Shown here: in pieces, positions 47,236 through 64,000 of the stretch | Numbering within the stretch: the stretch's first letter is position 1 | Layout of the letters: each line of letters starts with the position of its first letter | From: Thermoplasmata archaeon | Lineage (GTDB): Archaea; Thermoplasmatota; Thermoplasmata; Lutacidiplasmatales; UBA184 | Reading direction: 5' to 3' | NCBI GenBank assembly: GCA_027314165.1 | Contig: DAHVCH010000008.1 | Location: forward strand, 27,274-91,273 | Length of the DNA stretch: 64,000 bases | The notes under the pieces: generated by a model | The model's database searches: none | What the model saw: the letters and a program-made list of their open reading frames with translations, nothing else | Told to the model about the DNA's origin: nothing | Translations under genes and position numbers: made by a program

Positions 47236-48027
47236 TCAGGTCCCGGGAGCCGCCCGCTTTCGCCAGGAGCGCCAGGCCTCCTCCTCCACGACGTGGAGCG
47301 AGGGGGAGGGGAGGATGAGGCAGTGCAGGGGCGGGCCGAAGTCCCGTGCCTCGAGCTCCCCCCGGGGACCGACCACCACCTTCGCATCGGGAGCGCCGGC
47401 CCTTGCGATCACCGCGACCTCGCGCTCGGGCGGCAGCACTCCGCCCCGCCTCTCGGTCTCGAGCTCGCCCAAGAGCCGGAGGGCCTCGCCGGCGGTGAGG
47501 TAGTGACCCTCGGCGGGGTCCAGGTCGAGCAGCACCAGGGTGTGCAGCTCCGCCTTCCAGTTCGCAAGAAGCGCATCGTACGGCGACGTGGGTCGGAACC
47601 CTGGTCGCGGGCGCGGGAGCGAGACGGTCCGTCCGAACCGATAGTGGCTGAGCCCCACCAGGCTCGCCGCCGCGGTCAGGATGCTCGCGTTGTGGAGGAC
47701 CCTCCAGGTGTGGCCGTGCGCCTCGGCGGAGAGGCGAAGGGCGAGGTGGGTCGTCGCCGCGAACGGCTCCCCCACGACGAGGAGCGCGACGCTCCCGCCC
47801 TGGGCGAGGGCGTCCAGAACCCGACGCTCGCCCTCCACCTCCTCCCGCGACAGCTCTTGGACCTCCCGGCCCAGCTTCGAGCCCAATCGGGAGAGCGCCC
47901 CCTCCCCCCACCGGGAGGTGTACTGCTCCGCGAAGATCGCGCCGCACCCCGCAAGGTCCTCCATCGCTCTCTGCGAGAGGTCCTTCTCGTCGCAGAGACC
48001 CAGACCCACGAAGAGGAGTTCGCCCAC
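47236..48027 (-). CDS. dph5: Diphthine synthase
   Basis: MGELLFVGLGL...AEQYTS, LLVVGEPFAATTH, LHNASILTAA, YRFGRTVSLP, LHTLVLLDL, FGPPLHCLILP. GTG 48027. Confidence 0.93.
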   Translation of the reverse strand: MGELLFVGLGLCDEKDLSQRAMEDLAGCGAIFAEQYTSRWGEGALSRLGSKLGREVQELSREEVEGERRVLDALAQGGSVALLVVGEPFAATTHLALRLSAEAHGHTWRVLHNASILTAAASLVGLSHYRFGRTVSLPRPRPGFRPTSPYDALLANWKAELHTLVLLDLDPAEGHYLTAGEALRLLGELETERRGGVLPPEREVAVIARAGAPDAKVVVGPRGELEARDFGPPLHCLILPSPSLHVVEEEAWRSWRKRAAPGT

Positions 48028-48300
48028 GGCCGGCTCACCCCTCCCGAAACTTGAAGGCCACGATGGACGGCGAGGGCCATCCCCAGCGCCCCCCCCGAGT
48101 GCCGAACCGGCTAGGGACCCGTCCTCGGGGTGGGATCGGGGCGGCACGGGGAGGAGGGGAGGTTGCTCGGGGGGTGGTTCGGGGGAGCGGCGCCTCCCCG
48201 CGGCAGGGGAGAGGGGCGGGAAGGGGCTCGCTCCTCTCCCCTCTCGCGCTCCCAAATACTAATAATCCCCAGGTCACCCCCCATCCTCGACGTTCCCTTG

Positions 48301-53562: not shown

Positions 53563-55259
53563 GGGAGCGTCACTCCCGAGGAGAAGGGGCCCAGGGCCAG
53601 CACGGGCAGGAAGAGGAGGCCGCTCACCACGAGCAGGAACCCGATCAGGTAGATCGTGAAGGTCGCCGACTGGGTCCGCAGGGTTCCCGGCCCCGGAGGC
53701 AGCGTGGGCTCGCGGGCGAGCGCCCCGCCGATGGCGAGCATGGCGATGATGGGCAGGAACCGGCCGACGAGCATGATCACGCCGCCCAGGACGTTGAAGT
53801 ACGGTGTGGTGTCGCCGGCGTAGCCGGGGTAGCCCATCCCGCTCCCGTTGTTCGCGGCCTCGCTCGTGAACTCGTAGAGGATCTCCGTGAACCCTTGCGA
53901 CGTGTTCCCCGCGGTGGCGTGGAGGAGCCCCGGCAAGGAGACCGTGAGCGCGAGCGGGACGAGGATCGCGAAGGGGTGGGAGAGCAGGCTCACCGCCGCC
54001 CACTTCATCTCGCTACGGCCGATCTTGCATCCCAGGTACTCGGGCGTTCGCCCGACCATGAGCCCCGCGATGAACACGGCCAGCAGCGCGTTCACCAGGA
54101 GCATCCCGAAGCCGGTCCCCACCCCTCCAGGAGAGTCCTGCAGGAACATCCCCCAGAGGAGGACCATCTGGGCCCCCGGGGTCAGCGACTGGAGGGCCAT
54201 GGCCGTCGCCCCGACGTTGGCGTAGATGCTGGTCACCTGGAACAGGGCGTCCTCCCCGAGCGAGAATCGGGTCTCGCCTCCCATCAGACCGTAGCCCGCC
54301 GATTGGGAGACCGGGAGCCCCGAGAGCGCGGGGTTGCCGAGCTCAAAGATGAAGAACAGGCCGAGCGCCACCAGGAAGATGGCCAGGACGGCCGCGATCA
54401 ACGGGTAGGCCTCCCGAGGTCGGCGGGTCATCTCGCCGAACATGAACGGCGTGGCGAACGGGATGAGCATCATGATCACGGCCCCGGTGAGGAGCACCAC
54501 CGCGGTCGGCGCCTGCAGCGGATGGGCGAAGTTCGAGGCGAAGTAACCGCCCCCATTCGAGCCCAGCAGCTCGATCCCGCCCCAGGAGGCGAGGGGGCCG
54601 GAGGGGACGAGCATCCCTCCACCTCCGAGGTCCGGGACCGTGGTGGCCTGGGCGAGGGTCTGGTCGACCCCCATGAGCACGAAGATGAGCGCGCAGATCA
54701 CGGCCAGGGGGAAGAACACCCGGGTCACGGCCCGGGTGGCGTCGGCCCAGAAGTTCCCCAGCGTCCCGTCGCGGCGGACGAAGCCTCGGATGAAGGCCAC
54801 GACCACGCAAAGCCCGCTCACCGCGGAGAGGAACATGAGCATCTGAAGGCCGGCGAGGTCGGCGAGCAGGGAGACCCCTCCTTCGCCAGCATAGTGCTGG
54901 AAGTCGGTGTTCGTCGTGAACGAGGCGGAGGTGTGGAAGGCCAGATCCCAGGACATCCCCTGGGCGGACCAGAAATTGTAGGGCAGGAGCGACTGCTCCA
55001 TCAGCAGGACGAGGACGAAGACGAGCGCGAACGCGTTCAGCAGGAGCAGGGAGGCCGCGTACTCCTTCCACCCCATCGCCCGTCGGGGGTTGGTCCCCAC
55101 GAGGCGGTAGATCCCGCGCTCGATCGGCGCGAAGAACCCGTCCAGGAGGGTCGGTCGGTCCATGAAGACCCGGGCCATGTAGATGCCGAGGTACCGGGCG
55201 AGGACGAGCCCCACCAGCAGGGCCAGGCCTACGTCCCAGACGCTGAAGATGCTGGTCAT
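53559..55259 (-). CDS. kdpA: K+-transporting ATPase subunit A
   Basis: SFTTNTDFQHYAGE, LGSNGGGYFASNFAHP, GGVGTG, GRTPEYLG, SEAANNGSG, GRFLPI. Confidence 0.97.
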   Translation of the reverse strand: MTSIFSVWDVGLALLVGLVLARYLGIYMARVFMDRPTLLDGFFAPIERGIYRLVGTNPRRAMGWKEYAASLLLLNAFALVFVLVLLMEQSLLPYNFWSAQGMSWDLAFHTSASFTTNTDFQHYAGEGGVSLLADLAGLQMLMFLSAVSGLCVVVAFIRGFVRRDGTLGNFWADATRAVTRVFFPLAVICALIFVLMGVDQTLAQATTVPDLGGGGMLVPSGPLASWGGIELLGSNGGGYFASNFAHPLQAPTAVVLLTGAVIMMLIPFATPFMFGEMTRRPREAYPLIAAVLAIFLVALGLFFIFELGNPALSGLPVSQSAGYGLMGGETRFSLGEDALFQVTSIYANVGATAMALQSLTPGAQMVLLWGMFLQDSPGGVGTGFGMLLVNALLAVFIAGLMVGRTPEYLGCKIGRSEMKWAAVSLLSHPFAILVPLALTVSLPGLLHATAGNTSQGFTEILYEFTSEAANNGSGMGYPGYAGDTTPYFNVLGGVIMLVGRFLPIIAMLAIGGALAREPTLPPGPGTLRTQSATFTIYLIGFLLVVSGLLFLPVLALGPFSSGVTLP

Positions 55260-55284
55260 GATCCCTCCGCCGTGCCCGATGGCC

Positions 55285-55395
55285 CTACAGCCGCTCCGGC
55301 CGGATCATCGCGTAGAGGAGGTAGAACACCAGGGCGACCATGACCCCTGTGAACACGACGATGCCCAGGTTCTGAAGGAGCAGGTCGCCGACCAT
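55285..55395 (-). CDS. kdpF: K+-transporting ATPase subunit F (36 aa, absent from the ORF track)
   Basis: MVGDLLLQNLGIVVFTGVMVALVFYLLYAMIRPERL*, with the KdpF C-terminal YL-x-YA-x2-RPER signature, 25 bp upstream of kdpA. Confidence 0.9.
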   Translation of the reverse strand: MVGDLLLQNLGIVVFTGVMVALVFYLLYAMIRPERL

Positions 55396-55434
55396 GTCTG
55401 CATCCGGAGGTTCCCGGCCACCTCGAGTTCACGC

Positions 55435-55472
55435 CTTAAGTCTGTCCCCTGACTCGCAACGGCTCGCCAACG
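55435..55472 (-). promoter_or_regulatory. Candidate kdpF promoter (CTTAAG) with upstream imperfect direct repeat
   Basis: CTTAAG at 55435-55440; CTCGCAACG (55453-55461) and CTCGCCAACG (55463-55472) on the plus strand, 13-32 bp upstream of the box for minus-strand transcription. Confidence 0.4.
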
Positions 55473-55520
55473 TGCGAAAGAACCCTCCGAGGAGGGCCAG
55501 GGCCGGGGAAGGTGCCCCGG

Positions 55521-55958
55521 TTACGGGGCGCTGGAGAGGTCCGGACTCGTCGTCGGGCTCCGCGCGTAGCGGGCCTTGAGCACGGCCTCGCGAAGCGCCT
55601 CGGGGTTCGCCGGGGCCCGGACCAGGCTGTCGGCCCCCAACCGGGCGTCCGGATCGCTGGACGTCGCGCCGGCGTGCGGGTCCTCCTCTCCAAACGTCAC
55701 CGCCACGACGCGCCCTCCGGGCAGCGTGCGGCGCGTCTCGCGGACGGTGTTCCGCCAGATCTCGGGCGGTCCGCTCAGACAGAGGACGACCACTCCGTCG
55801 GAGAGGTCGTAACGCGCCGAAGGCGGGATCTCGCGGGGGCTCGACACCTCGGCGGTCGCCTTGACGCCCTGGCTGGCCAGCGACTCCTTGACCAGGTAGC
55901 GTATCATCGGGTCCTCTCCGACGAGGAGGGCCCGCAGCCTCTGGGAGACCTCGGCCAC
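55521..55958 (-). CDS. Atypical (pseudo-)receiver domain protein, CheY-like fold
   Basis: ALLVGEDPMIRYLVKESL (beta1-alpha1), VVVLCLS (beta3, no Asp), VVAVT (beta4), GADSLVRAPANPEALREAV (beta5-alpha5, conserved Lys replaced). Confidence 0.65.
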   Translation of the reverse strand: MAEVSQRLRALLVGEDPMIRYLVKESLASQGVKATAEVSSPREIPPSARYDLSDGVVVLCLSGPPEIWRNTVRETRRTLPGGRVVAVTFGEEDPHAGATSSDPDARLGADSLVRAPANPEALREAVLKARYARSPTTSPDLSSAP

Positions 55959-56107
55959 GTCTAGGGCGAGCTTGGCGGCCTATATCTGTATAATGTTACA
56001 CACCCGGTGGGTTCCCGGAGGTCCTTCCGGCCGAACGGCGGCCGCGCGGGACGGCCACTCCCTGGTACCCTGGGAGGGGGCACCCGTCACACCCACGGAA
56101 GGGAAGC

Positions 56108-56117
56108 TATTGATATA
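56108..56117 (+). promoter_or_regulatory. TATA-like box upstream of SUI1
   Basis: TATTGATATA ending 26 nt before the TTG start, compatible with a leaderless or very short-leader transcript. Confidence 0.5.
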
Positions 56118-56143
56118 CCGCCGTCCTCTTCTCCACTGACACC

Positions 56144-56422
56144 TTGCAGGACTACGACCCTCTCCGGGAAGTTACCCAAGAACTCGACAGAGAAGAAGCC
56201 GTTCTGAGCGTCCGCGTGGAGCGGCGTCGGTACAACAAACCGACGACGGTCATCACGGGATTCCCGAAGGACGCTGACCTTCATGGGATCGCGAAGCAGC
56301 TCAAGACCTCGCTCGCCACCGGAGGGACCGGCAAGGACGGGGAGATCGTCCTGCTGGGCGACCACGGACGGCGCGCGAGGGAGAAGCTCGAGACCCTCGG
56401 CTACCACGTCGCCGAGGCGTGA
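56144..56422 (+). CDS. sui1: Translation initiation factor aIF1 (SUI1/eIF1 family)
   Basis: LDREEAVLSVRVERRRYNKPTTVITG...AKQLKTSLATGGTGKDGEIVLLGDH; TTG start with an in-frame stop at 56111. Confidence 0.92.
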   Translation: MQDYDPLREVTQELDREEAVLSVRVERRRYNKPTTVITGFPKDADLHGIAKQLKTSLATGGTGKDGEIVLLGDHGRRAREKLETLGYHVAEA

Positions 56423-56455
56423 GCGGTCGGCTCCAGGGATGGAGCGGGGTCAGCG

Positions 56456-56812
56456 ATGGCCATCCAGCCCCTTCAGCCCGATGACGACGACCTGGAAGCG
56501 CCGTTGGCGCTGGACGACGCGTTGCTCGAACGGGCCGTCCAACTTTACAGCGAACTCCGTTTGATCAAGCGGCCACCGGAGGGCGCCCCCGGGGCCGAGC
56601 GCAAGAGCGTCCGGTGGCTCCGGGAAGAGGCGGAGCGGCTCGGACGGGACTTTGATCCCGCCTGGGTCCCCTGGCTCCGACGGGCGTTCCTGGAGATCGA
56701 GGGTGACGTCAAGGAGAGCGTGGCCAGGCGGCGTTTCGCCTGGCACGGGGGCCCCCGGCGGAGCCGGGAGCCCCCGTCGCTGAGCGAGGCGCTCAGCTGT
56801 GGTTCCAGGTGA
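56456..56812 (+). CDS. Hypothetical protein
   Basis: 118-aa helical-looking ORF 33 bp after sui1; the 3' end overlaps the convergent peptidase gene. Confidence 0.55.
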   Translation: MAIQPLQPDDDDLEAPLALDDALLERAVQLYSELRLIKRPPEGAPGAERKSVRWLREEAERLGRDFDPAWVPWLRRAFLEIEGDVKESVARRRFAWHGGPRRSREPPSLSEALSCGSR

Positions 56813-57659
56813 CCGAGAAGTCCTCACCGGAGCCGGAGAGGCCGCTCGGCGCCGCCTTGACGTAGTTCTTCCCGGACATCGTGATCTCGGCCGCGGCCCA
56901 GGACGAGTCCTGGATCGCGCCCGTGGTGCCGCTGATGGTCGCGGTGCACGCCGTGAAGTCGACCGTCCCGAAGTCCGCGAGCGGAAGGACACGGCCGGAG
57001 GAGGGGGCTTCCGCGATCCACTCGGCGCTCGAGCGCTGAGCGTTGCTGACGCTCCCATTCTGGAAGTAGACCCAGTTCGCGGTGGTGTCCGCGACGCTGA
57101 CCTCGAAGTTCGTGCCGCCCGTCCAGAGGACTTGGGCAGTGATCACATCGCCGGGGGTCACGGGGTACAGGGTGGTCGGAAGGTTCACGGGGTAGGCCGG
57201 ATAGAACTCGTACCAGGCGTAGTAGGAGGGTGCCCCGGACGCGCAGTCCGAGTCCGTGCCCGTCTGCTCCACGGTGGAGCTCGAGTATCCGTCGATCCCG
57301 ACCCAGAACGCGGAGTAGGAGTCATGCGTGCCGCACTGGACGCTCGGCTGGGTCCAGCTGCCCTTGACGTCGCTGACGGCGTTAGTTGCGGGCGAGGAAA
57401 GGCAGGTCTCCGCCGCGTACCCGCCCCAGTTGGAGCTCGAGGTCTGCGTGACGATGCCGGTCCCACATGCGCCGGTCCCGCCACCACCGCCGTGGCCGTG
57501 GCCGTTGCCGAACTGCACGTGGGAAGCCGCGACCGCGTGGGCGACCGCAGCTCCGGATAGGAGGGCCGGTAGAAGGAGGACCGCGAGGGCTGCGATCCCA
57601 GCGGGGGCCAAAGTCGCCAAGGTTGCTCGTCGGTGAGACCGGAGGGGTTGGTGGGTCAT
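56793..57659 (-). CDS. Secreted G1-family glutamic endopeptidase (eqolisin / peptidase A4)
   Basis: Signal peptide; SSNWGGY, WVGIDG, EQTG (catalytic Q), AWYEFYP, SAEWIAE (catalytic E), LADFGTVDFT. Confidence 0.92.
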   Translation of the reverse strand: MTHQPLRSHRRATLATLAPAGIAALAVLLLPALLSGAAVAHAVAASHVQFGNGHGHGGGGGTGACGTGIVTQTSSSNWGGYAAETCLSSPATNAVSDVKGSWTQPSVQCGTHDSYSAFWVGIDGYSSSTVEQTGTDSDCASGAPSYYAWYEFYPAYPVNLPTTLYPVTPGDVITAQVLWTGGTNFEVSVADTTANWVYFQNGSVSNAQRSSAEWIAEAPSSGRVLPLADFGTVDFTACTATISGTTGAIQDSSWAAAEITMSGKNYVKAAPSGLSGSGEDFSVTWNHS

Positions 57660-57855
57660 CGAACGACCTGCCGCCGGCCCGAGGATAAATCTTCCGTCGA
57701 GCAGAACGTCGCGTGGGCTCCCGACGCATGCCGGTACCCCGCACGACCCCCAATGGGAGCCCGCCGTGGTGTGCCCTTGGAGGCTTCCCTGGCTCGAGAG
57801 CGGTGCCAGGGATCGGTCGGAGGCCCCCCCCCACGCCCTGCTCCGAGAACGGGGC

Positions 57856-58884
57856 TCAAGACCTCTGTCGCACCGGCCACTCGCCGCAGACCCGGCAGAA
57901 GTCGGTGTCTCTCGAGACCAACTGATAGCCGCAGGCCGGACAGGGGTCGTCCCCGTTCCGGGCGATCGGAGGGCCGTCCCCGAACTCCTGCCGGAACACG
58001 CGGTAGTAGGCGAGATGCTCCGGGTCCCTCAGTCGGACCCCGTCCTCCTGCAGGACCCGCGCCCGCTCCCTCTCGAACTCGTGGGGCGGGATCTCTCGCT
58101 CAAAGAAGCTCCGAAGGGCGGCGCTGCCGGAGCCCACCTCGATGGGGTCCTTCCGGCGCCATCGGTTCGGGACGTCGGGGAACGCGAGGCGGAGGAGGTA
58201 CTTGCCGTGGGTCGCCCCGTCGACGGTCCGCACCTTCGCGGATCTCGGGAGGGTGAGGGAGAATCGCACGATGGCGGGGTCCATGTACGGGGCCTGGACC
58301 TCGACCCCGAGGGCCCGGCCGAGAGGATCGGACGAGAAGCTCATCCCGTGGGCCATCCGTTCGGAAGCCCGCCGGAACTCCTCCTCGTCCTTCCCCCACA
58401 GGAAGGAGTAGCCCCCGAAGAGCTCGTCCGCGGCGTCGCCGGTCAGCACCTGGGTGAGGCCCCTCTCCGCCGCCTCCCGCAGCCCCCGGGAAACGACGAG
58501 GCTGTTGCGGACCTCCATCGGATCGAAGGTCCGCATCGTGCGAACGACCAGGTGCGCCTCCCGAAGCAGCCCGGGGAGGTCCGTACGGACGACGTGATGG
58601 GTGAGCCCGCAACGCTCCGCCACGGCGATCGCGTGCTCCTCGTCCGGCGGGTGGTCGCCGACGAGCACGGTGACCCCTGCGGTCAAGCCCCGGGACCGTG
58701 CGACCTCCGCGAGGATGGAGGTGTCCAGGCCCCCCGAGAGCAGGATGGTCTCCGCCGGATGCGGCCCCACCGCGTCGGACACCAGTCCGCGCAGGGTCTC
58801 GGCCGCCTCGCGAAGCCCCTCTTCCACCGGAGGTACGTGGGGTACGGTCGGGAGGGCGGTCGGGAGGGAAGTCGGAGGGGTCAC
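57856..58884 (-). CDS. Asparagine synthase C-terminal (synthetase) domain protein without a glutaminase domain
   Basis: PP-loop LLSGGLDTS, LTGDAADELFGGY, APYMDP, RRKDPIEVGSG; C-terminal CPAC...CRVC zinc ribbon. GTG start. Confidence 0.85.
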   Translation of the reverse strand: MTPPTSLPTALPTVPHVPPVEEGLREAAETLRGLVSDAVGPHPAETILLSGGLDTSILAEVARSRGLTAGVTVLVGDHPPDEEHAIAVAERCGLTHHVVRTDLPGLLREAHLVVRTMRTFDPMEVRNSLVVSRGLREAAERGLTQVLTGDAADELFGGYSFLWGKDEEEFRRASERMAHGMSFSSDPLGRALGVEVQAPYMDPAIVRFSLTLPRSAKVRTVDGATHGKYLLRLAFPDVPNRWRRKDPIEVGSGSAALRSFFEREIPPHEFERERARVLQEDGVRLRDPEHLAYYRVFRQEFGDGPPIARNGDDPCPACGYQLVSRDTDFCRVCGEWPVRQRS

Positions 58885-58970
58885 GAGATCTCCCAGCGCT
58901 GATGCGAGCGTCCAAGAGACATAAATGTCGGACCCCTGGGGGGGCTCCGAAGGAATCCAGGAGGTCCCAG

Positions 58971-59915
58971 GTGTCCGCTCAGCCCACGACCCCCCCCAAG
59001 CGCATCGTGTCTTTCCTTCCGAGCGCGACGGAGATGGTCTGCGCCCTGGGACTCGCCGATCGCCTGGTCGGGATCACCCACGAGTGCGACTACCCTCCGG
59101 AGATCCGGGGACGGCCCGTCGTCATCCGGCCGGCCCTTCCCATGGAGGGGCTCACCCCCGAGGAGGTGGACCGGCAGGTCTCGCAACGTCTGCGCAGGGG
59201 GGAGAGCCTGTACCAGGCGGACGAAGAGATGCTGCGCAGGCTCGACCCGGATCTCATCTTGACGCAGGACCTCTGCCAGGTCTGCGCGCCCTCCGGCAAC
59301 GAGCTCTCCCAGGTGCTTCGGGCGCTTCCACGGCCACCGAAGGTCCTGTGGCAGACCCCGCACAACCTGGAGGAGGTCTTCGGCTGCCTCCTGGAGCTCG
59401 GGGAAGCGACGGGCAAGTCGAAGGAGGCGCGCGCTCTCGTCGAACAGGGACGCGCCCGCTTGGACCGGGTCCGCGCGAGGGTCGCGGGGCTGCCGAGGCC
59501 GCGCGTGTTCATGATGGAGTGGGTGGACCCGGTCTACTGCGCGGGTCACTGGGTGCCGGAAATGATCGACCTGGCCGGGGGAGAGGACCGTCTCGGACGC
59601 AAGGGAGCGTTCTCGGTACGGGTCCCCTGGGAGGAGGTCGTCCGCTGGGCACCGGAGGTGCTGGTCCTCGCGCCCTGCAGCGTCCCCCTTCCGCAAGCGG
59701 TCGAGCAGTGGCAGCGGCTACGAGGTCGGCCGGGCACCGACAAGCTTCCGGCGGTCCGGAACGGACAGGTGGTGGCCGTGGCCTCGAGCTCGTACTTCGC
59801 ACGGCCCGGTCCCCGGGTCGTCCCGGGGGTCGAGCTGCTCGCCCACCTCTTCCATCCGGGCGAGGTTCCCTGGGACGGTCCTACCGACGCCTTTGTGCGG
59901 CTCGACGCCCGGTGA
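58971..59915 (+). CDS. BtuF-like periplasmic-binding-fold protein lacking a signal peptide (Cys-rich)
   Basis: RIVSFLPSATEMVCALG...GITHECDYP...TQDLCQVCAP...AGHWVPEMIDLAGG...FARPGPR; GTG 58971 after AGGAGGT; no hydrophobic N-terminus. Confidence 0.82.
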   Translation: MSAQPTTPPKRIVSFLPSATEMVCALGLADRLVGITHECDYPPEIRGRPVVIRPALPMEGLTPEEVDRQVSQRLRRGESLYQADEEMLRRLDPDLILTQDLCQVCAPSGNELSQVLRALPRPPKVLWQTPHNLEEVFGCLLELGEATGKSKEARALVEQGRARLDRVRARVAGLPRPRVFMMEWVDPVYCAGHWVPEMIDLAGGEDRLGRKGAFSVRVPWEEVVRWAPEVLVLAPCSVPLPQAVEQWQRLRGRPGTDKLPAVRNGQVVAVASSSYFARPGPRVVPGVELLAHLFHPGEVPWDGPTDAFVRLDAR

Positions 59916-61335
59916 GCCCGGTCGAGCCCTCGCCGCTCCCGTCGGGAGCCCCCTCGGTACCGAGGAAGCGCGCGAGGAAACCCGGGACCTGGTCGAACCG
60001 GACGTGAAGGTAGGACGCGAAGGCGCGCCCCCGGAAGTAGCCATCCCTGACGGGGTCTCCCCCGGCGATCCTCCGGACCTCCAACGCCCACGACTGCTCC
60101 TTCGGCGCCACGCGGACGGAGTGATGGTAGAGGTGCCCGTGGACGCGGTCTTGCCGCCTTCCGAGGAGAACATCCTGCCTCAGCCTCGCCTCCACGTATC
60201 CGAAGCCCCCGAGCCGGGGGGAGAGGCGGGCGGACCCGGGGAAAGCTCCGGCCATGGTGTGGCGGCGCCCCTGCATGTCGTAGAGGCGGTCGAGCAGGTA
60301 CATCATCCCCCCGCACTCGGCGTAGACCGGACGCCCGTCCCGCACCCATCGTCGCATCTCCCGGCCCAAGCCGTCGTTGCGGGAGAGCTCGGCCGCGTGC
60401 AGCTCCGGAAATCCCCCTGGCAGGTAGATCGCGTCGGCTCCAGGGGGAAGGCCCTCGCCGGCCACCGGGGAGAACTCGACGAGCCTCGCCCCTGCGGCCT
60501 GTAGCGACTCCAGGTTCTCGGGATACACGAAACAGAAAGCGGGATCTGAGGCCACCGCGACCTGAGGGTGAGCGAGCGCCAGGATCCCGCTCCGCCGGGC
60601 CTCGTCCCTGGGTGAGGGGAGCGGGCGCGCCGCCCGGGCGACGGCGAGGACCGACGGCAGGTCCACATGCTCCTCCACGAGCGCCGCCGCACGACGGACC
60701 CGACGGGAGAGCCTCCCCCCGGGGTCGGTACGCGGAGTGACCAGCCCGAGGTGGCGTTCGGGGAGGGTCGCCTCCGGCTCCCACGGCAGGACCCCCAGCA
60801 CCGGTACCCCGGCCTTCTCCTCGATGGCGCGCCGGACCGCGGAGGAGTGCCATCCCCGTCCCGCCCGGTCGACCAGGACGCCCTTGAGCCGGGACCCGAG
60901 CAGGTGCCGGGCCCCCCTCGCGTGCACCGCGAGCGTCTCGGAGGCGGCGGAGGCGTCCAGGACCAGCAGGATGGGGAGGTCGAGGGCCTTGGCCACGTCG
61001 AGGGACGAGGTCCCCCACTCTTCCCCGTCCATGAGGCCCATCGCCCCCTCCACTATCGACACGCCTCCCGGCGCCCGGGCGCAGGTGCGGAGGAAGTCCT
61101 CGCGCATGGTTGGTTCCGGGACGAGCCACGTGTCGAGGTTCCGTGCGGGTGCGCCCGCCGCGACAGACAGCACCTGGGGGTCGAGGAAATCCGGCCCGCA
61201 CTTGAACGCCCGTGTCCTCAGCCCCCTCCGTCGCAGGGCTCCCAGAAGCCCGCTCGCCACCGTGGTCTTCCCGGCGGAGGACGTGAGCCCGGCGACGAGC
61301 ACGCGTGGGGCTTCCGACCGTTCGGGAAAGGGCAT
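59881..61335 (-). CDS. cbiA: Cobyrinate a,c-diamide synthase (CbiA/CobB family)
   Basis: SSAGKTT, FKCGPDFLDP, IVEGAMGLMDG, LPERHLGL, AFCFVYPEN, GGFPELH, YAECGGMMYL, ASYLH. Confidence 0.9.
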   Translation of the reverse strand: MPFPERSEAPRVLVAGLTSSAGKTTVASGLLGALRRRGLRTRAFKCGPDFLDPQVLSVAAGAPARNLDTWLVPEPTMREDFLRTCARAPGGVSIVEGAMGLMDGEEWGTSSLDVAKALDLPILLVLDASAASETLAVHARGARHLLGSRLKGVLVDRAGRGWHSSAVRRAIEEKAGVPVLGVLPWEPEATLPERHLGLVTPRTDPGGRLSRRVRRAAALVEEHVDLPSVLAVARAARPLPSPRDEARRSGILALAHPQVAVASDPAFCFVYPENLESLQAAGARLVEFSPVAGEGLPPGADAIYLPGGFPELHAAELSRNDGLGREMRRWVRDGRPVYAECGGMMYLLDRLYDMQGRRHTMAGAFPGSARLSPRLGGFGYVEARLRQDVLLGRRQDRVHGHLYHHSVRVAPKEQSWALEVRRIAGGDPVRDGYFRGRAFASYLHVRFDQVPGFLARFLGTEGAPDGSGEGSTGLTGRRAAQRRR

Positions 61336-61442
61336 CGTCCGAGGTAGGCGAACCTGCCCTTGGGCTTATCGGTGGTCTCGCGCGCCGGAGCGCTCGGGAC
61401 CTCCCGCAAGGATTATGTGAAAGAGCCCTTGATGCAAATCCA

Positions 61443-62501
61443 ATGTCCTTGAGTGACACGCCGTCCGCAGCCTCCTCCGCCCCCCGCAGGACCCTCTCCC
61501 TCACGTTGGCCGTCGTGCTCCTCGTCGCGGTGGCCGCCGTCGCGGTCGGAGCTACCGCCGGCTACTACGCCCTCCATCCTTCGTCCCCGGCCCCGGGACC
61601 GGGCGACGTGACCGTCGTCGACGACCTGGGGAGGACCGTGACCGCGCCCGCCAACGCCGGGAAGATCGTCGTGCTGGCCCCCAGCGTGATGGACATGGTC
61701 TTCCGTCTGGGCCTCCGCTCGAGCGTGGTCGCGGTGGGCTGCACGGCGTCGATCCCCGGAGGGATCCTGAACGAGTACTCCCCCAACCAGACGGCGGCCT
61801 GGAGCCTCACGAACGCGACCTGCGTCACCGACTACCCCACGCTCAACACGGAGGGGATCGCCAACGCGAGCGCACAGCTGGTGCTCGCCTCGACCATCAC
61901 GAGCCAGTCGGCGGTGGAAACCCTCACCGGCACCTACCACATCCCGGTGGTCATCCTCGCCCCCTCCACGCTGGAGGGCATCGTCGGGGACGTGCGGATC
62001 TTGGGGCAGCTCTTCCCGTCCGCGTCCGCTTCCGCGAGGTCGCTCGAGTCCGAGCTCTCCCGGACGCTCACGAGCGTCACGAGCGAGGACGCCAATCTCA
62101 CCAACGCCCAGGTCGCGGTCCCCTCGGTCCTGCTCTCCTACTACTTCGACTCGGGGGGCTACTACACCTTCGGGCCCGGCACGTTCGGGGCCTCGATGAT
62201 CGACCTGGCGGGCGGGAGCAACCTCGCGGGCTCCGTGCCGCTGCAGTATGACGAGATCAACGCCACCGTCGTGCTCAACGACCAGCCCACGACCATCCTC
62301 TACGGGACCAGCTGGAACGACCCCGACCTGGTGGCGGGGGAGACCCCGGGTGTCTGGGCCACCGCGCCGTATTGGTCGCAGTTGAACGGCGCCAAGATCC
62401 CCCTGGACGTGACGGAGGTCTCCGAGCCCGACCCGACGATGATCCTGGCGTTGCCCTGGGTACAACACGACCTGTTCCCGTCTCTCGTGCCCGCGCCTTG
62501 A
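61443..62501 (+). CDS. btuF: ABC transporter substrate-binding protein, cobalamin/siderophore (BtuF-like), membrane anchored
   Basis: N-terminal TM; VVDDLGRTV...IVVLAPSVMDMVFRLG; GPGTFGASMIDLAGG; first gene of an F-C-D-type operon. Confidence 0.75.
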   Translation: MSLSDTPSAASSAPRRTLSLTLAVVLLVAVAAVAVGATAGYYALHPSSPAPGPGDVTVVDDLGRTVTAPANAGKIVVLAPSVMDMVFRLGLRSSVVAVGCTASIPGGILNEYSPNQTAAWSLTNATCVTDYPTLNTEGIANASAQLVLASTITSQSAVETLTGTYHIPVVILAPSTLEGIVGDVRILGQLFPSASASARSLESELSRTLTSVTSEDANLTNAQVAVPSVLLSYYFDSGGYYTFGPGTFGASMIDLAGGSNLAGSVPLQYDEINATVVLNDQPTTILYGTSWNDPDLVAGETPGVWATAPYWSQLNGAKIPLDVTEVSEPDPTMILALPWVQHDLFPSLVPAP

Positions 62502-62635
62502 CGGAAGGCCTCGGGGCCGACCCCCGTCCCGGCCCCGGGCGCGATGCCCGAGGGACAGGGCATGCGAAGGAGGGCGGCTCGATCGGTCCGCCTTCGGGGC
62601 CCCGACCCGGCAAGGAGAAGGGGGCCCAGGGAGGG

Positions 62636-63727
62636 GTGCGCGCGGCTTGGGGCCACCCGCGATCCGGCGCGCTCCTGCTGTTGCTGGGGCTCGCGGCTGC
62701 GGTCCTGCTCTCTCCTCTCATCGGGCCCGAGCCGCTTCCTTGGAAGGACGTCCTGTCGATCATGCTCCACCAGGCGGCGGGGGGGGCCCTGGGGTCCGGG
62801 TCCTGCCTGCCGGCGGTCCCGCCCGCCCAGTGTCACGTGTGGACGGTGATCGTGTGGGACGCCCGGGTCCCGGCGGTGCTCCTCGCCGCCTTTGTCGGCG
62901 CCTCCCTCGGCGTGTCCGGCGCCTCGCTCCAGGGCGTCTTCCGGAACCCGCTCGCGGACCCGTACCTTCTCGGACTCTCCTCCGGAGCCGCCCTCGGCGC
63001 GGCCGCCGCCTTCGCGCTCACCGTGTCCCCCGGCAGCTCGCTGAACCCCGCGACCCGGTCCCTCCTCCTGCCGGTGGCGGCCTTCGCCGGAGGGCTGGTG
63101 CCAGGGACGGTGGTCCTCCTCGCCTCCCTCTCGGGAAGGGTGGGCGCCGGTTCGCTCATCATGGTGGGGATCGCTCTGAACGCCCTCTTCTCCGCCATCA
63201 TCTCCGCGGTGCTCCTCTACAACCAGAACATCACGATCCAGGTGACCTTCTGGCTCTGGGGCGGGCTCTCCTACGCCACCTGGACGAACGACGCGCTCGT
63301 CCTCTCCGTCCTCATGGTCGCCGGGATGCTCCTCGCGCTCCACGGGCGGCCGTTGAACCTGCTCCAGCTGGGCGAGGACGTCGCCTCCAGCCTCGGCACG
63401 GACGCCCCGAAGGTCATGCGACGTGTGGTCCTCCTCACCACCATCCTCACCGCCGCCGCGGTGGCCTTCGTCGGGATCATCGGGTTCGTGGGGCTGATCG
63501 CTCCCCACGTGGTCCGGCGGGTGGTGGGCGTGGACTATCGACGTGTCCTCCCGCTCTCGATGGCCACCGGCGCGGGCTTCCTGATCATTTCCTGGGACGC
63601 CGCGCAGATCATCATCCCCACGGTCGTGCTTCCGGTCGGCATCCTCACGGGCTTCGTCGGCTCCGCGTTCTTCCTCTACGTGCTGTTCCGCCGTTGGCTC
63701 CCCCGGGGGAGCGGGAGCTCGCGATGA
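62636..63727 (+). CDS. btuC: FecCD/BtuC family ABC permease
   Basis: RVPAVLLAAFVGASLGVSGASLQGVFRNPLADPYLLGLSSGA, LNLLQLGEDVASSLG, GIIGFVGLIAPH. Start uncertain (GTG 62636 after GGGAGGG). Confidence 0.85.
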   Translation: MRAAWGHPRSGALLLLLGLAAAVLLSPLIGPEPLPWKDVLSIMLHQAAGGALGSGSCLPAVPPAQCHVWTVIVWDARVPAVLLAAFVGASLGVSGASLQGVFRNPLADPYLLGLSSGAALGAAAAFALTVSPGSSLNPATRSLLLPVAAFAGGLVPGTVVLLASLSGRVGAGSLIMVGIALNALFSAIISAVLLYNQNITIQVTFWLWGGLSYATWTNDALVLSVLMVAGMLLALHGRPLNLLQLGEDVASSLGTDAPKVMRRVVLLTTILTAAAVAFVGIIGFVGLIAPHVVRRVVGVDYRRVLPLSMATGAGFLIISWDAAQIIIPTVVLPVGILTGFVGSAFFLYVLFRRWLPRGSGSSR

Positions 63728-64000
63728 ACGGGGCCCCCCTGGAGGCGGAGGGCCTCACCCTCCGTTACGGCGAGCGCACCGCCCTGAGGGGCGTGTCCTT
63801 CCAGACCGCTCCTCGTGAGCTCGTGGCGCTCGCGGGCCCCAACGGGTCCGGCAAGTCCAGCCTTCTCCGAGCGGTCATGGGCCTCGAGCGCCTCACCGAG
63901 GGGAGGATCGCGGTTCGCGGGAAGGACGCCCGCACGCTCACCCTCCAGGAACGGGCGCGAGAGGTCGCCTGGATGCCCCAGGAGGAGCCGGTGGGTGAGG
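63724..64000 (+). CDS. btuD: ABC transporter ATP-binding protein (BtuD/FepC-like), truncated by the window edge
   Basis: ATG 63724 overlapping the permease stop; Walker A GPNGSGKSS; Q-loop AWMPQE. Confidence 0.85.
   Translation, partial: MNGAPLEAEGLTLRYGERTALRGVSFQTAPRELVALAGPNGSGKSSLLRAVMGLERLTEGRIAVRGKDARTLTLQERAREVAWMPQEEPVGE

Follow-up and report, generated by a model that had tools for sequence, protein, structure and literature searches.

Why does an archaeon that does not make cobalamin (B12) keep an intact gene for CbiA? Most B12-using microbes cannot make B12, and metagenome studies commonly rely on cbiA as the marker gene for producers. We address this question for a 64,000-nucleotide stretch of DNA (hereafter the window; G000:C88:27274-91273) from a Thermoplasmata soil archaeon, part of a 100,215-bp contig in a 2.54-Mb metagenome-assembled genome (MAG) of 96 contigs that is 85.7% complete. 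The window's own genome is labeled G000; other G numbers denote related genomes, g numbers genera, and L numbers long contigs or loci. Near the end of the window, cbiA belongs to a six-gene unit that also contains btuF, btuC, btuD, a gene for a leaderless BtuF-like protein and a gene for an AsnB-like PP-loop ligase. CbiA, this AsnB-type carboxylate-adenylating ligase without a glutaminase domain, and the Cys-rich BtuF-like protein form a conserved accessory trio beside the sole FecCD-type importer of the genome. Our best reading, to which we give somewhat less than an even chance (about 0.45), is corrinoid re-amidation, in which the carboxylate side chains of imported complete corrinoids are amidated.

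An orphan cbiA beside the sole FecCD-type importer

The G+C content of about 70% gives rise to spurious long open reading frames (ORFs) in all frames. Genes were called by third-position GC (GC3) frame analysis and checked with Pfam and NCBIfam, which gave the following features:

56793-57659, minus strand: peptidase A4
57856-58884, minus strand: PP-loop ligase consisting of the AsnB synthetase domain only (Pfam PF00733, E 2.4e-24)
58885-58970, no strand: promoter spacer of the divergent AsnB-like and leaderless BtuF-like genes (read from the sequence)
58971-59915, plus strand: leaderless BtuF-like class III binding protein (Peripla_BP_2; Pfam PF01497, E 1.5e-18)
59881-61335, minus strand: cbiA, ATPase domain plus GATase_3 (Pfam and NCBIfam; PRK01077 406 bits)
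61336-61442, no strand: divergent cbiA/btuF promoter spacer (read from the sequence)
61443-62501, plus strand: btuF, extracellular BtuF-like substrate-binding protein anchored by a transmembrane (TM) helix (Pfam PF01497)
62498-63727, plus strand: btuC, FecCD permease (Pfam PF01032, E 6.7e-78)
63724-64000, plus strand: btuD ATPase, 5' part (Pfam PF00005); the complete gene ends at window-equivalent position 65061 (L002:6998-8335)

These calls agree with an earlier note on this DNA, which had described cbiA as divergent from btuFCD and convergent with a cytoplasmic BtuF paralogue. A 107-bp spacer, 98-100% conserved in G001, lies between the divergent cbiA and btuF, and the 3' ends of cbiA and the leaderless BtuF-like gene overlap by 35 bp. 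The ORF at 58925-60007 (+) was rejected as the paralogue, having no Pfam or NCBIfam match and the wrong GC3 pattern; the true gene has the frame of 58698-59915 (GC3 0.88-0.90). By direct reading, the spacer at 58885-58970 holds a TATA-like ACATAAATGT, then GGAGG ahead of the GTG start at 58971. On the far side of this spacer lies the sixth gene, with which the earlier note had begun its region while leaving the AsnB-domain protein unnamed in its text.

We searched the window, the genome and its relatives for the remainder of a cobalamin pathway. No other cbi or cob gene occurs in the window, as had been claimed, and its only TP_methylase gene encodes Dph5. Whole-genome searches for GATase_3 returned nothing besides cbiA and PdxT; the PdxT match was considered as a split CobQ and ruled out. 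A CbiA protein query of the genome gave no second CobQ-type match, leaving cbiA as the sole CbiA/CobQ-type gene, and whole-genome searches of the 85.7%-complete assembly yielded no match to CbiB, CobS, CbiZ or CbiC. Neither the ring genes and CobQ/CbiP, which in a cobalamin pathway would supply cobyrinate and consume the diamide, nor anything cob-like in the 8.9 kb of contig past the window edge was found. CobS was found in none of the four genomes of the window's genus and in none of the three of genus g7, and CbiB and CbiC were found neither in the searched genomes of the window's genus nor in genus g7 (0/2). Identical searches recovered CbiB/CobS/CbiC-type genes in the sister genomes G004, G005, G010 and G015. 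Because the absence repeats in congeners and in g7 while sisters score positive, MAG incompleteness does not explain the missing genes. The earlier note had held that a complete de novo pathway, whether elsewhere or immediately beyond the edge, would make this an ordinary dispersed cbiA; no such pathway turned up in the genome, the congeners or the flank, and the cbiA of the window is truly orphan.

Two TP_methylase genes were found in the genome. Dph5 (47236-48255, minus strand; TIGR00522, 215 bits) has an N-terminal extension of ~80 residues before the methylase domain. The other is a divergent SUMT-like gene (G000:C30:14564-15181; L006:1252-2298) that scores 118 bits against a cut-off of 185 and presumably serves siroheme or heme synthesis.

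The host is a B12-dependent, non-producing Thermoplasmata soil archaeon. Its genome encodes a class II ribonucleotide reductase (NrdJ; 590 bits, cut-off 400), two large subunits of the methylmalonyl-CoA mutase family, one stand-alone B12-binding subunit and a PduO adenosyltransferase. By tblastn of the genome, the btuC of the window is the only FecCD gene of the assembly. Its orthologue occurs once per genome in 21 of 25 relatives, and none was found in G005, the single de novo producer of the family, which has six TP_methylases and a CbiC gene adjoining its CbiA gene. Given this sole FecCD gene, the B12-dependent enzymes, the single orthologue in relatives and its absence from the producer, we take the cluster to be the B12 importer of a non-producer. 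The class III binding protein, FecCD permease and ABC ATPase (PF01497, PF01032, PF00005) follow one another on one strand, which is the BtuFCD architecture; the BtuC model is the best NCBIfam match for the permease, yet at 213 bits it falls under the cut-off of 461. The translated btuF product has an N-terminal TM helix and many N-x-S/T sequons. BtuD is 445 aa long, with a C-terminal extension of ~200 aa that is annotated as an MJ0874 domain in relatives; in L038 and L039 a separate MJ0874-like gene comes before cbiZ.

The 8.9 kb of contig beyond the window contain btuD, a DUF7839 winged helix-turn-helix regulator gene (minus strand), pabAB with a class IV aminotransferase, an electron transfer flavoprotein and HxlR. 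The regulator, of the DUF7839/HVO_A0261_N type (L002:8325-9161, minus strand; window-equivalent 65051-65887), adjoins btuD in almost all versions of the cluster (L019, L023, L026, L032, L034, L058-L064). No Rfam family reached its gathering score across the whole window, and no cobalamin riboswitch appeared even at E<=1 in 55000-64000, in line with the earlier note; two sub-threshold mini-ykkC matches were dismissed, both lying within coding sequence. We know of no cobalamin riboswitch in archaea. The divergent spacers of orthologous clusters share TATA-like boxes only, with no common 8-mer beyond close relatives; no shared operator was found. In archaea without cobalamin riboswitches, the conserved DUF7839 protein is a candidate for a transcription factor that responds to corrinoids, and it offers a handle on archaeal B12 sensing. 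The peptidase A4 on the other flank, an eqolisin-type acid protease in an archaeon, adjoins the cluster in G001 and G003 only; its ratio of nonsynonymous to synonymous substitution rates (dN/dS) is 0.59.

CbiA and its conserved partners

Judged by its sequence, the CbiA of the window is a member of an orphan Thermoplasmata clade with intact catalytic residues, distinct from CfbB. It passes the CbiA/CobB equivalog cut-offs (PRK01077, 406 bits against 254; TIGR00379, 340 bits against 261) and has the expected two domains, an N-terminal DTBS-like ATPase (PF01656/PF13500) and a C-terminal GATase_3 (PF07685). The G22-K23-T24 P-loop, D49, D52, E96, C341 and H401 are invariant with respect to named CbiA proteins, and the catalytic motifs are invariant across the orphan clade in four genera. 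Specific to the clade are a 3-residue deletion after MGLxDG and the replacement of GHEFHYS by GHLYHHS. Database homologues comprise ~24 clusters at >=51% identity, all from Thermoplasmata or "Euryarchaeota" MAGs; below them lies a gap to named bacterial CbiA at <=44% (about 40-44%). No sequence match to a solved structure was found in the PDB at E<=1e-5. In a maximum-likelihood tree the orphan clade is monophyletic (SH-like approximate likelihood ratio test, SH-aLRT, 100) on a stem of 0.59, and is nested among canonical CbiA, apart from a CfbB-like clade of genomes with two paralogues. The window's protein lies outside that 13-member CfbB-like clade (SH-aLRT 100).

Orphan-clade CbiA is intact in 10 genomes of four genera at 51-63% identity. 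Ring synthesis is absent from every genome in which the clade was found (10 checked), and no CbiC was found among its carriers G000-G004, G009, G014 and G015. G004 has two TP_methylases, whereas G015 and G020 have one each, and because of this single methylase the substrate of CbiA in G015 and G020 must be imported. Against the 93%-identical orthologue in the closest genome, cbiA has a dN/dS of 0.41, with 0.06-0.24 for its neighbors, and resembles other functional genes nearby; as a test of function this intermediate value is not decisive.

The leaderless BtuF-like protein has neither a signal peptide nor a TM segment in its translation. Its AlphaFold2 (AF2) model has a predicted local distance difference test score (pLDDT) of 90 and matches V. 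cholerae BtuF (5ysc) and E. coli BtuF (1n4a) best, with a target-normalized TM-score (TMt) of 0.83-0.86 (1n4a 0.86); heme-binding proteins match as well. Four cysteines (HECDYP, QxLCxVC, PC) are invariant across its orthologues and in a second paralogue on contig C11. This paralogue (G000:C11:179624-180511; L041:7625-8515) is a stand-alone gene among unrelated neighbors, which encode a tetratricopeptide repeat protein and an M50-like peptidase, and is kept in nearly all genomes of the family. The leaderless gene is under the strongest constraint in the cluster, with a dN/dS of 0.06 against G001.

The AsnB-like protein, 342 aa in length, carries an SGGLDTS PP-loop, the AsnB TGDAADELFGGYSF motif and a C-terminal four-Cys zinc ribbon (CxxC...CxxC). 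It lacks the glutaminase domain and corresponds to the synthetase half only (profile positions 231-508 of 554). Its AF2 model (pLDDT 90) finds as best PDB matches AsnB 1ct9, human ASNS, beta-lactam synthetase and carbapenam synthetase, in each case with the synthetase half only. Among the partners of the leaderless binding protein this gene is the most constant; it adjoins the orthologue of that protein in g1, g6, g7, L032, L034, L037, L060-64, L085, L091 and L132.

The six-gene cluster, whose conservation the earlier note had proposed to examine, is kept entire in G001. G003 retains its AsnB-like, binding-protein and CbiA genes along with btuF; in G002 the AsnB-like gene and CbiA are followed by btuFCD and the regulator; in G004 CbiA is divergent from btuCD; and the g7 genomes hold the AsnB-like, leaderless binding-protein and CbiA genes together with btuC on a separate contig. 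In all 10 genomes checked, orphan-clade CbiA has btuFCD or the leaderless binding protein, or the two together, as neighbors. In L038 and L039 (G015 type), one arm of the locus runs from an MJ0874-like gene and cbiZ to cobA-btuD-btuC-btuF, with pduO nearby, and the opposite arm is an operon of the leaderless binding protein, CbiA and the DUF7839 regulator. Through cbiZ and cobA this arrangement links the orphan CbiA clade with corrinoids, not with some other tetrapyrrole. The link between cbiA and corrinoid uptake suggested in the earlier note thus stands on two observations, the adjoining sole FecCD importer of a B12-dependent host and the orthologue near cbiZ and cobA in relatives.

A further version of the module lacks CbiA. 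In genus g6, L032 and L034 the AsnB-like gene is divergent from an operon of the leaderless binding protein, btuF, btuC and btuD, and is followed by a DUF71 (PF01902) gene far under the archaeal Dph6 cut-off; the DUF71 genes in such sister-lineage modules score 67-106 bits against a Dph6 cut-off of 197. A 45%-identical lineage (L037) has the leaderless binding-protein, AsnB-like, DUF71, binding-protein, FecCD and ABC genes all on one strand. Altogether the combination of AsnB-like protein, non-Dph6 DUF71, leaderless binding protein and BtuFCD was found in g6, L032, L034, L037, L060-64 and L085. The window's genome has no non-Dph6 DUF71 paralogue and carries CbiA instead. CobS is missing from four of five distant genomes with the AsnB-like and DUF71 genes, which argues against a remodeling role that needs rebuilding of the nucleotide loop.

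We surveyed AsnB-like homologues more widely at 80 named loci from many phyla. A DUF71 gene is adjacent or within ~3 kb at ~22 of these, a BtuFCD-like transporter is nearby at ~14, and the leaderless binding protein is adjacent at ~11. A universal B12 context for the family was rejected, many distant members having unrelated neighbors. One locus from Bathyarchaeia (L132; DASPWY010000153.1) encodes the AsnB-like protein, CbiA and the leaderless binding protein in one operon, and here as in g7 the trio behaves as a unit. No CobS or CbiC was found in this genome. The L132 CbiA falls outside the orphan clade in the best tree, which suggests independent recruitment as far as the tree goes, monophyly not being rejected by the approximately unbiased (AU) test (p = 0.15). 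Divergent from this operon (L132:2080-4427, minus strand) are genes for an energy-coupling factor (ECF) S-component, a DUF4430 protein and an alpha/alpha-toroid protein. We take the latter two to resemble the two halves of transcobalamin-type B12 binders, and the three genes together look like a transcobalamin-like, ECF-type B12 uptake set.

Homologues with the AsnB synthetase domain only also occur in early-diverging fungi. Those of Basidiobolus and Fimicolochytrium are 42-46% identical (P0099, P0113), and an ESM Atlas cluster of such relatives is dominated by Zoopagomycota, with further relatives in chytrids. Zoopagomycota and chytrids are described as cobalamin users (Orlowska et al. 2021, as cited in passages of PMC10406608); for a link to B12, the fungal proteins are a lead only.

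Re-amidation of imported corrinoids and its alternatives

If re-amidation is correct, the cytoplasmic BtuF-like protein would hold the corrinoid after import, and the two ligases would turn free carboxylate side chains back into amides. For the a and c acetates this would be the task of CbiA, with glutamine as donor, and for another carboxylate that of the AsnB-like enzyme, with ammonia as donor. Complete cobamides that enter the cell with part of their amides lost would be the substrates; an example would be the mono- or dicarboxylic acids of cobalamin, produced by hydrolysis in acidic or hot soil. PduO could then adenosylate the repaired cofactor for use by methylmalonyl-CoA mutase and the class II ribonucleotide reductase. 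In sister lineages, the non-Dph6 DUF71 PP-loop ligase may substitute for CbiA. Two lines of reasoning lead to this proposal. As the genus lacks CobQ, CbiB and CobS, the substrate should not be an early precursor and must be usable after amidation alone, which points to a complete cobamide acid. Moreover, CbiA, the AsnB synthetase domain and DUF71 are three unrelated amide-ligase families that alternate in the module, and most of the module genomes searched lack nucleotide-loop assembly, so amidation fits better than CbiZ-like hydrolysis.

Several points weigh against re-amidation. The known substrate of CbiA enzymes is cobyrinate or hydrogenobyrinate and not a complete cobamide, and the literature searched contained no description of corrinoid re-amidation or repair. 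In the leaderless protein, the four invariant cysteines could point to a metal or Fe-S site instead of to the binding of corrinoids. The function is accessory, in that g6 lacks CbiA and the genera g4 and g5 import B12 without any member of the trio. More than half of the 80 AsnB-like loci in other phyla show no B12-type neighbor with the queries used; the dN/dS of cbiA exceeds that of its cluster neighbors; and the MAG is 85.7% complete. A wider proposal is more tentative still: the Cys-rich carrier, the AsnB-type ligase and either CbiA or the DUF71-B12 ligase might constitute a dedicated corrinoid amide-repair system across B12-auxotrophic archaea and some bacteria, with AsnB-like relatives in B12-using early-diverging fungi.

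Could CbiA instead carry out its textbook reaction? Incompletely amidated early corrinoids from producers (cobyrinate, partial amides) would then be salvaged, with other genes supplying the remaining steps. At least one of CbiB and CobS occurs in sister genomes with the same CbiA clade (G004, G015, G020), along with cbiZ, cobA and a CobQ-like ORF, and Shelton et al. (2019, PMC6461909) report cbiA/cobB in 46% of the genomes that they predict to salvage precursors, for which the passages of that paper on these genomes give no explanation. In the window's genus and in g7, however, CobQ, CbiB, CobS and CbiZ were found in none of the genomes searched (4 + 3), so that cobyrinate a,c-diamide could not become a cobamide. 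We consider the finishing of precursors unlikely here; it may be the ancestral role of the clade in the CbiB/CobS-bearing relatives.

A role in trafficking or processing without amidation seems to us about equally doubtful. The Cys-rich BtuF-like protein, perhaps with an Fe-S or thiolate center, would be a carrier, reductase or decyanase, and CbiA and the AsnB-like protein its ATP-driven loading or gating partners. This would suit the four invariant cysteines in an otherwise BtuF-like fold, the dN/dS of 0.06, which makes this leaderless protein the most constrained in the cluster, and the retention of its paralogue in nearly every genome of the family. It leaves unaccounted for the glutaminase Cys/His and all synthetase motifs of CbiA, as well as the PP-loop and AsnB substrate-side motifs of the AsnB-like protein, whose retention is unexpected in non-catalytic partners.

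That cbiA is a relic of a lost pathway, with no present function, is less probable again. Its dN/dS against the nearest genome is relatively high and the gene is missing from g4, g5 and g6, but a relic would hardly show an intact ORF with invariant catalytic residues throughout the 10 carrier genomes at 51-63% identity, a conserved position beside the leaderless binding protein or btuFCD, and a similar trio in Bathyarchaeia. Amidation of a non-corrin tetrapyrrole, endogenous or imported (CfbB-like Ni-sirohydrochlorin or siroamide-like), as offered in the earlier note, is the least probable explanation and is not borne out: despite CbiA/CfbB homology, a SUMT-like gene in the genome and a leaderless protein fold that matches heme-binding proteins as well as BtuF, CbiA reaches only 310 bits on the CfbB model (NF033195; cut-off 560) and lies outside the CfbB-like clade, its orthologue in relatives sits beside cbiZ and cobA, and two carriers of the clade have a single TP_methylase each.

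Whatever its function, a whole clade of intact cbiA marks importers rather than producers, and surveys that use the gene as a marker would miscount them. If re-amidation of imported corrinoids is the correct reading, it would be a new cofactor-repair pathway, would give a function to the long-unresolved DUF71-B12 family and to the AsnB-like proteins without a glutaminase domain, and would explain the persistence of cbiA in many non-producers. The usable environmental B12 pool would then include de-amidated forms that are otherwise regarded as inactive or antagonistic.

Comparison with known systems

The CbiA of the window shares with de novo CbiA/CobB (e.g. S. enterica CbiA) the two-domain architecture, scores above the cut-offs, the catalytic motifs and about 40-44% identity to bacterial CbiA. 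It differs in its setting, a genome without corrin-ring synthesis, CobQ, CbiB or CobS, in its own long-stemmed clade, and in its place in an uptake cluster instead of a cbi operon. CfbB of F430 synthesis belongs to a homologous enzyme family and performs the same a,c-amidation chemistry; the window's protein is set apart from it by the score on the CfbB model and by a position outside the CfbB-like clade of Methanomassiliicoccales-type genomes. The AsnB-like model shares the PP-loop fold and motifs with AsnB and beta-lactam synthetase (1ct9, 1jgt; Foldseek E 1e-14, query-normalized TM-score, TMq, 0.65-0.70), whereas the protein itself has no N-terminal nucleophile (Ntn) glutaminase domain, has a zinc ribbon at its C terminus and falls far short of the AsnB equivalog cut-offs. 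In the literature searched we found no description of an AsnB-like partner reduced to its synthetase domain, of a Cys-rich leaderless BtuF-like protein, or of a CbiA clade confined to non-producers.

Archaeal salvage as described for Halobacterium combines BtuFCD with CbiZ, CbiB, CobY and CobS (Woodson and Escalante-Semerena, cited in passages of PMC3541065). The window has a BtuFCD-type importer with a long BtuD, and its relatives L038 and L039 have cbiZ and cobA in the cluster; unlike that system, CbiZ, CbiB and CobS were not found here, which means that cobinamide salvage and remodeling are not possible.

A further parallel is the DUF71-B12 subgroup, PP-loop ATPases that are encoded beside btuCDF and predicted to serve in B12 salvage (de Crecy-Lagard et al. 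2012, Biol Direct 7:32, PMC3541065); no later test of this prediction was found in the literature searched. In the passages of that paper on AsnB, it appears solely as a fusion at the N terminus of DUF71, in a few archaea, and neither a partner with the synthetase domain only nor a leaderless binding protein was found there. The paper's idea, as those passages put it, that DUF71-B12 replaces CbiZ is a misfit with module genomes that lack CbiB and CobS. The sister lineages L032, L034, L037 and L060-64 resemble the subgroup in having a non-Dph6 DUF71 gene in the same module next to BtuFCD, and the genome of the window differs in having CbiA in its stead.

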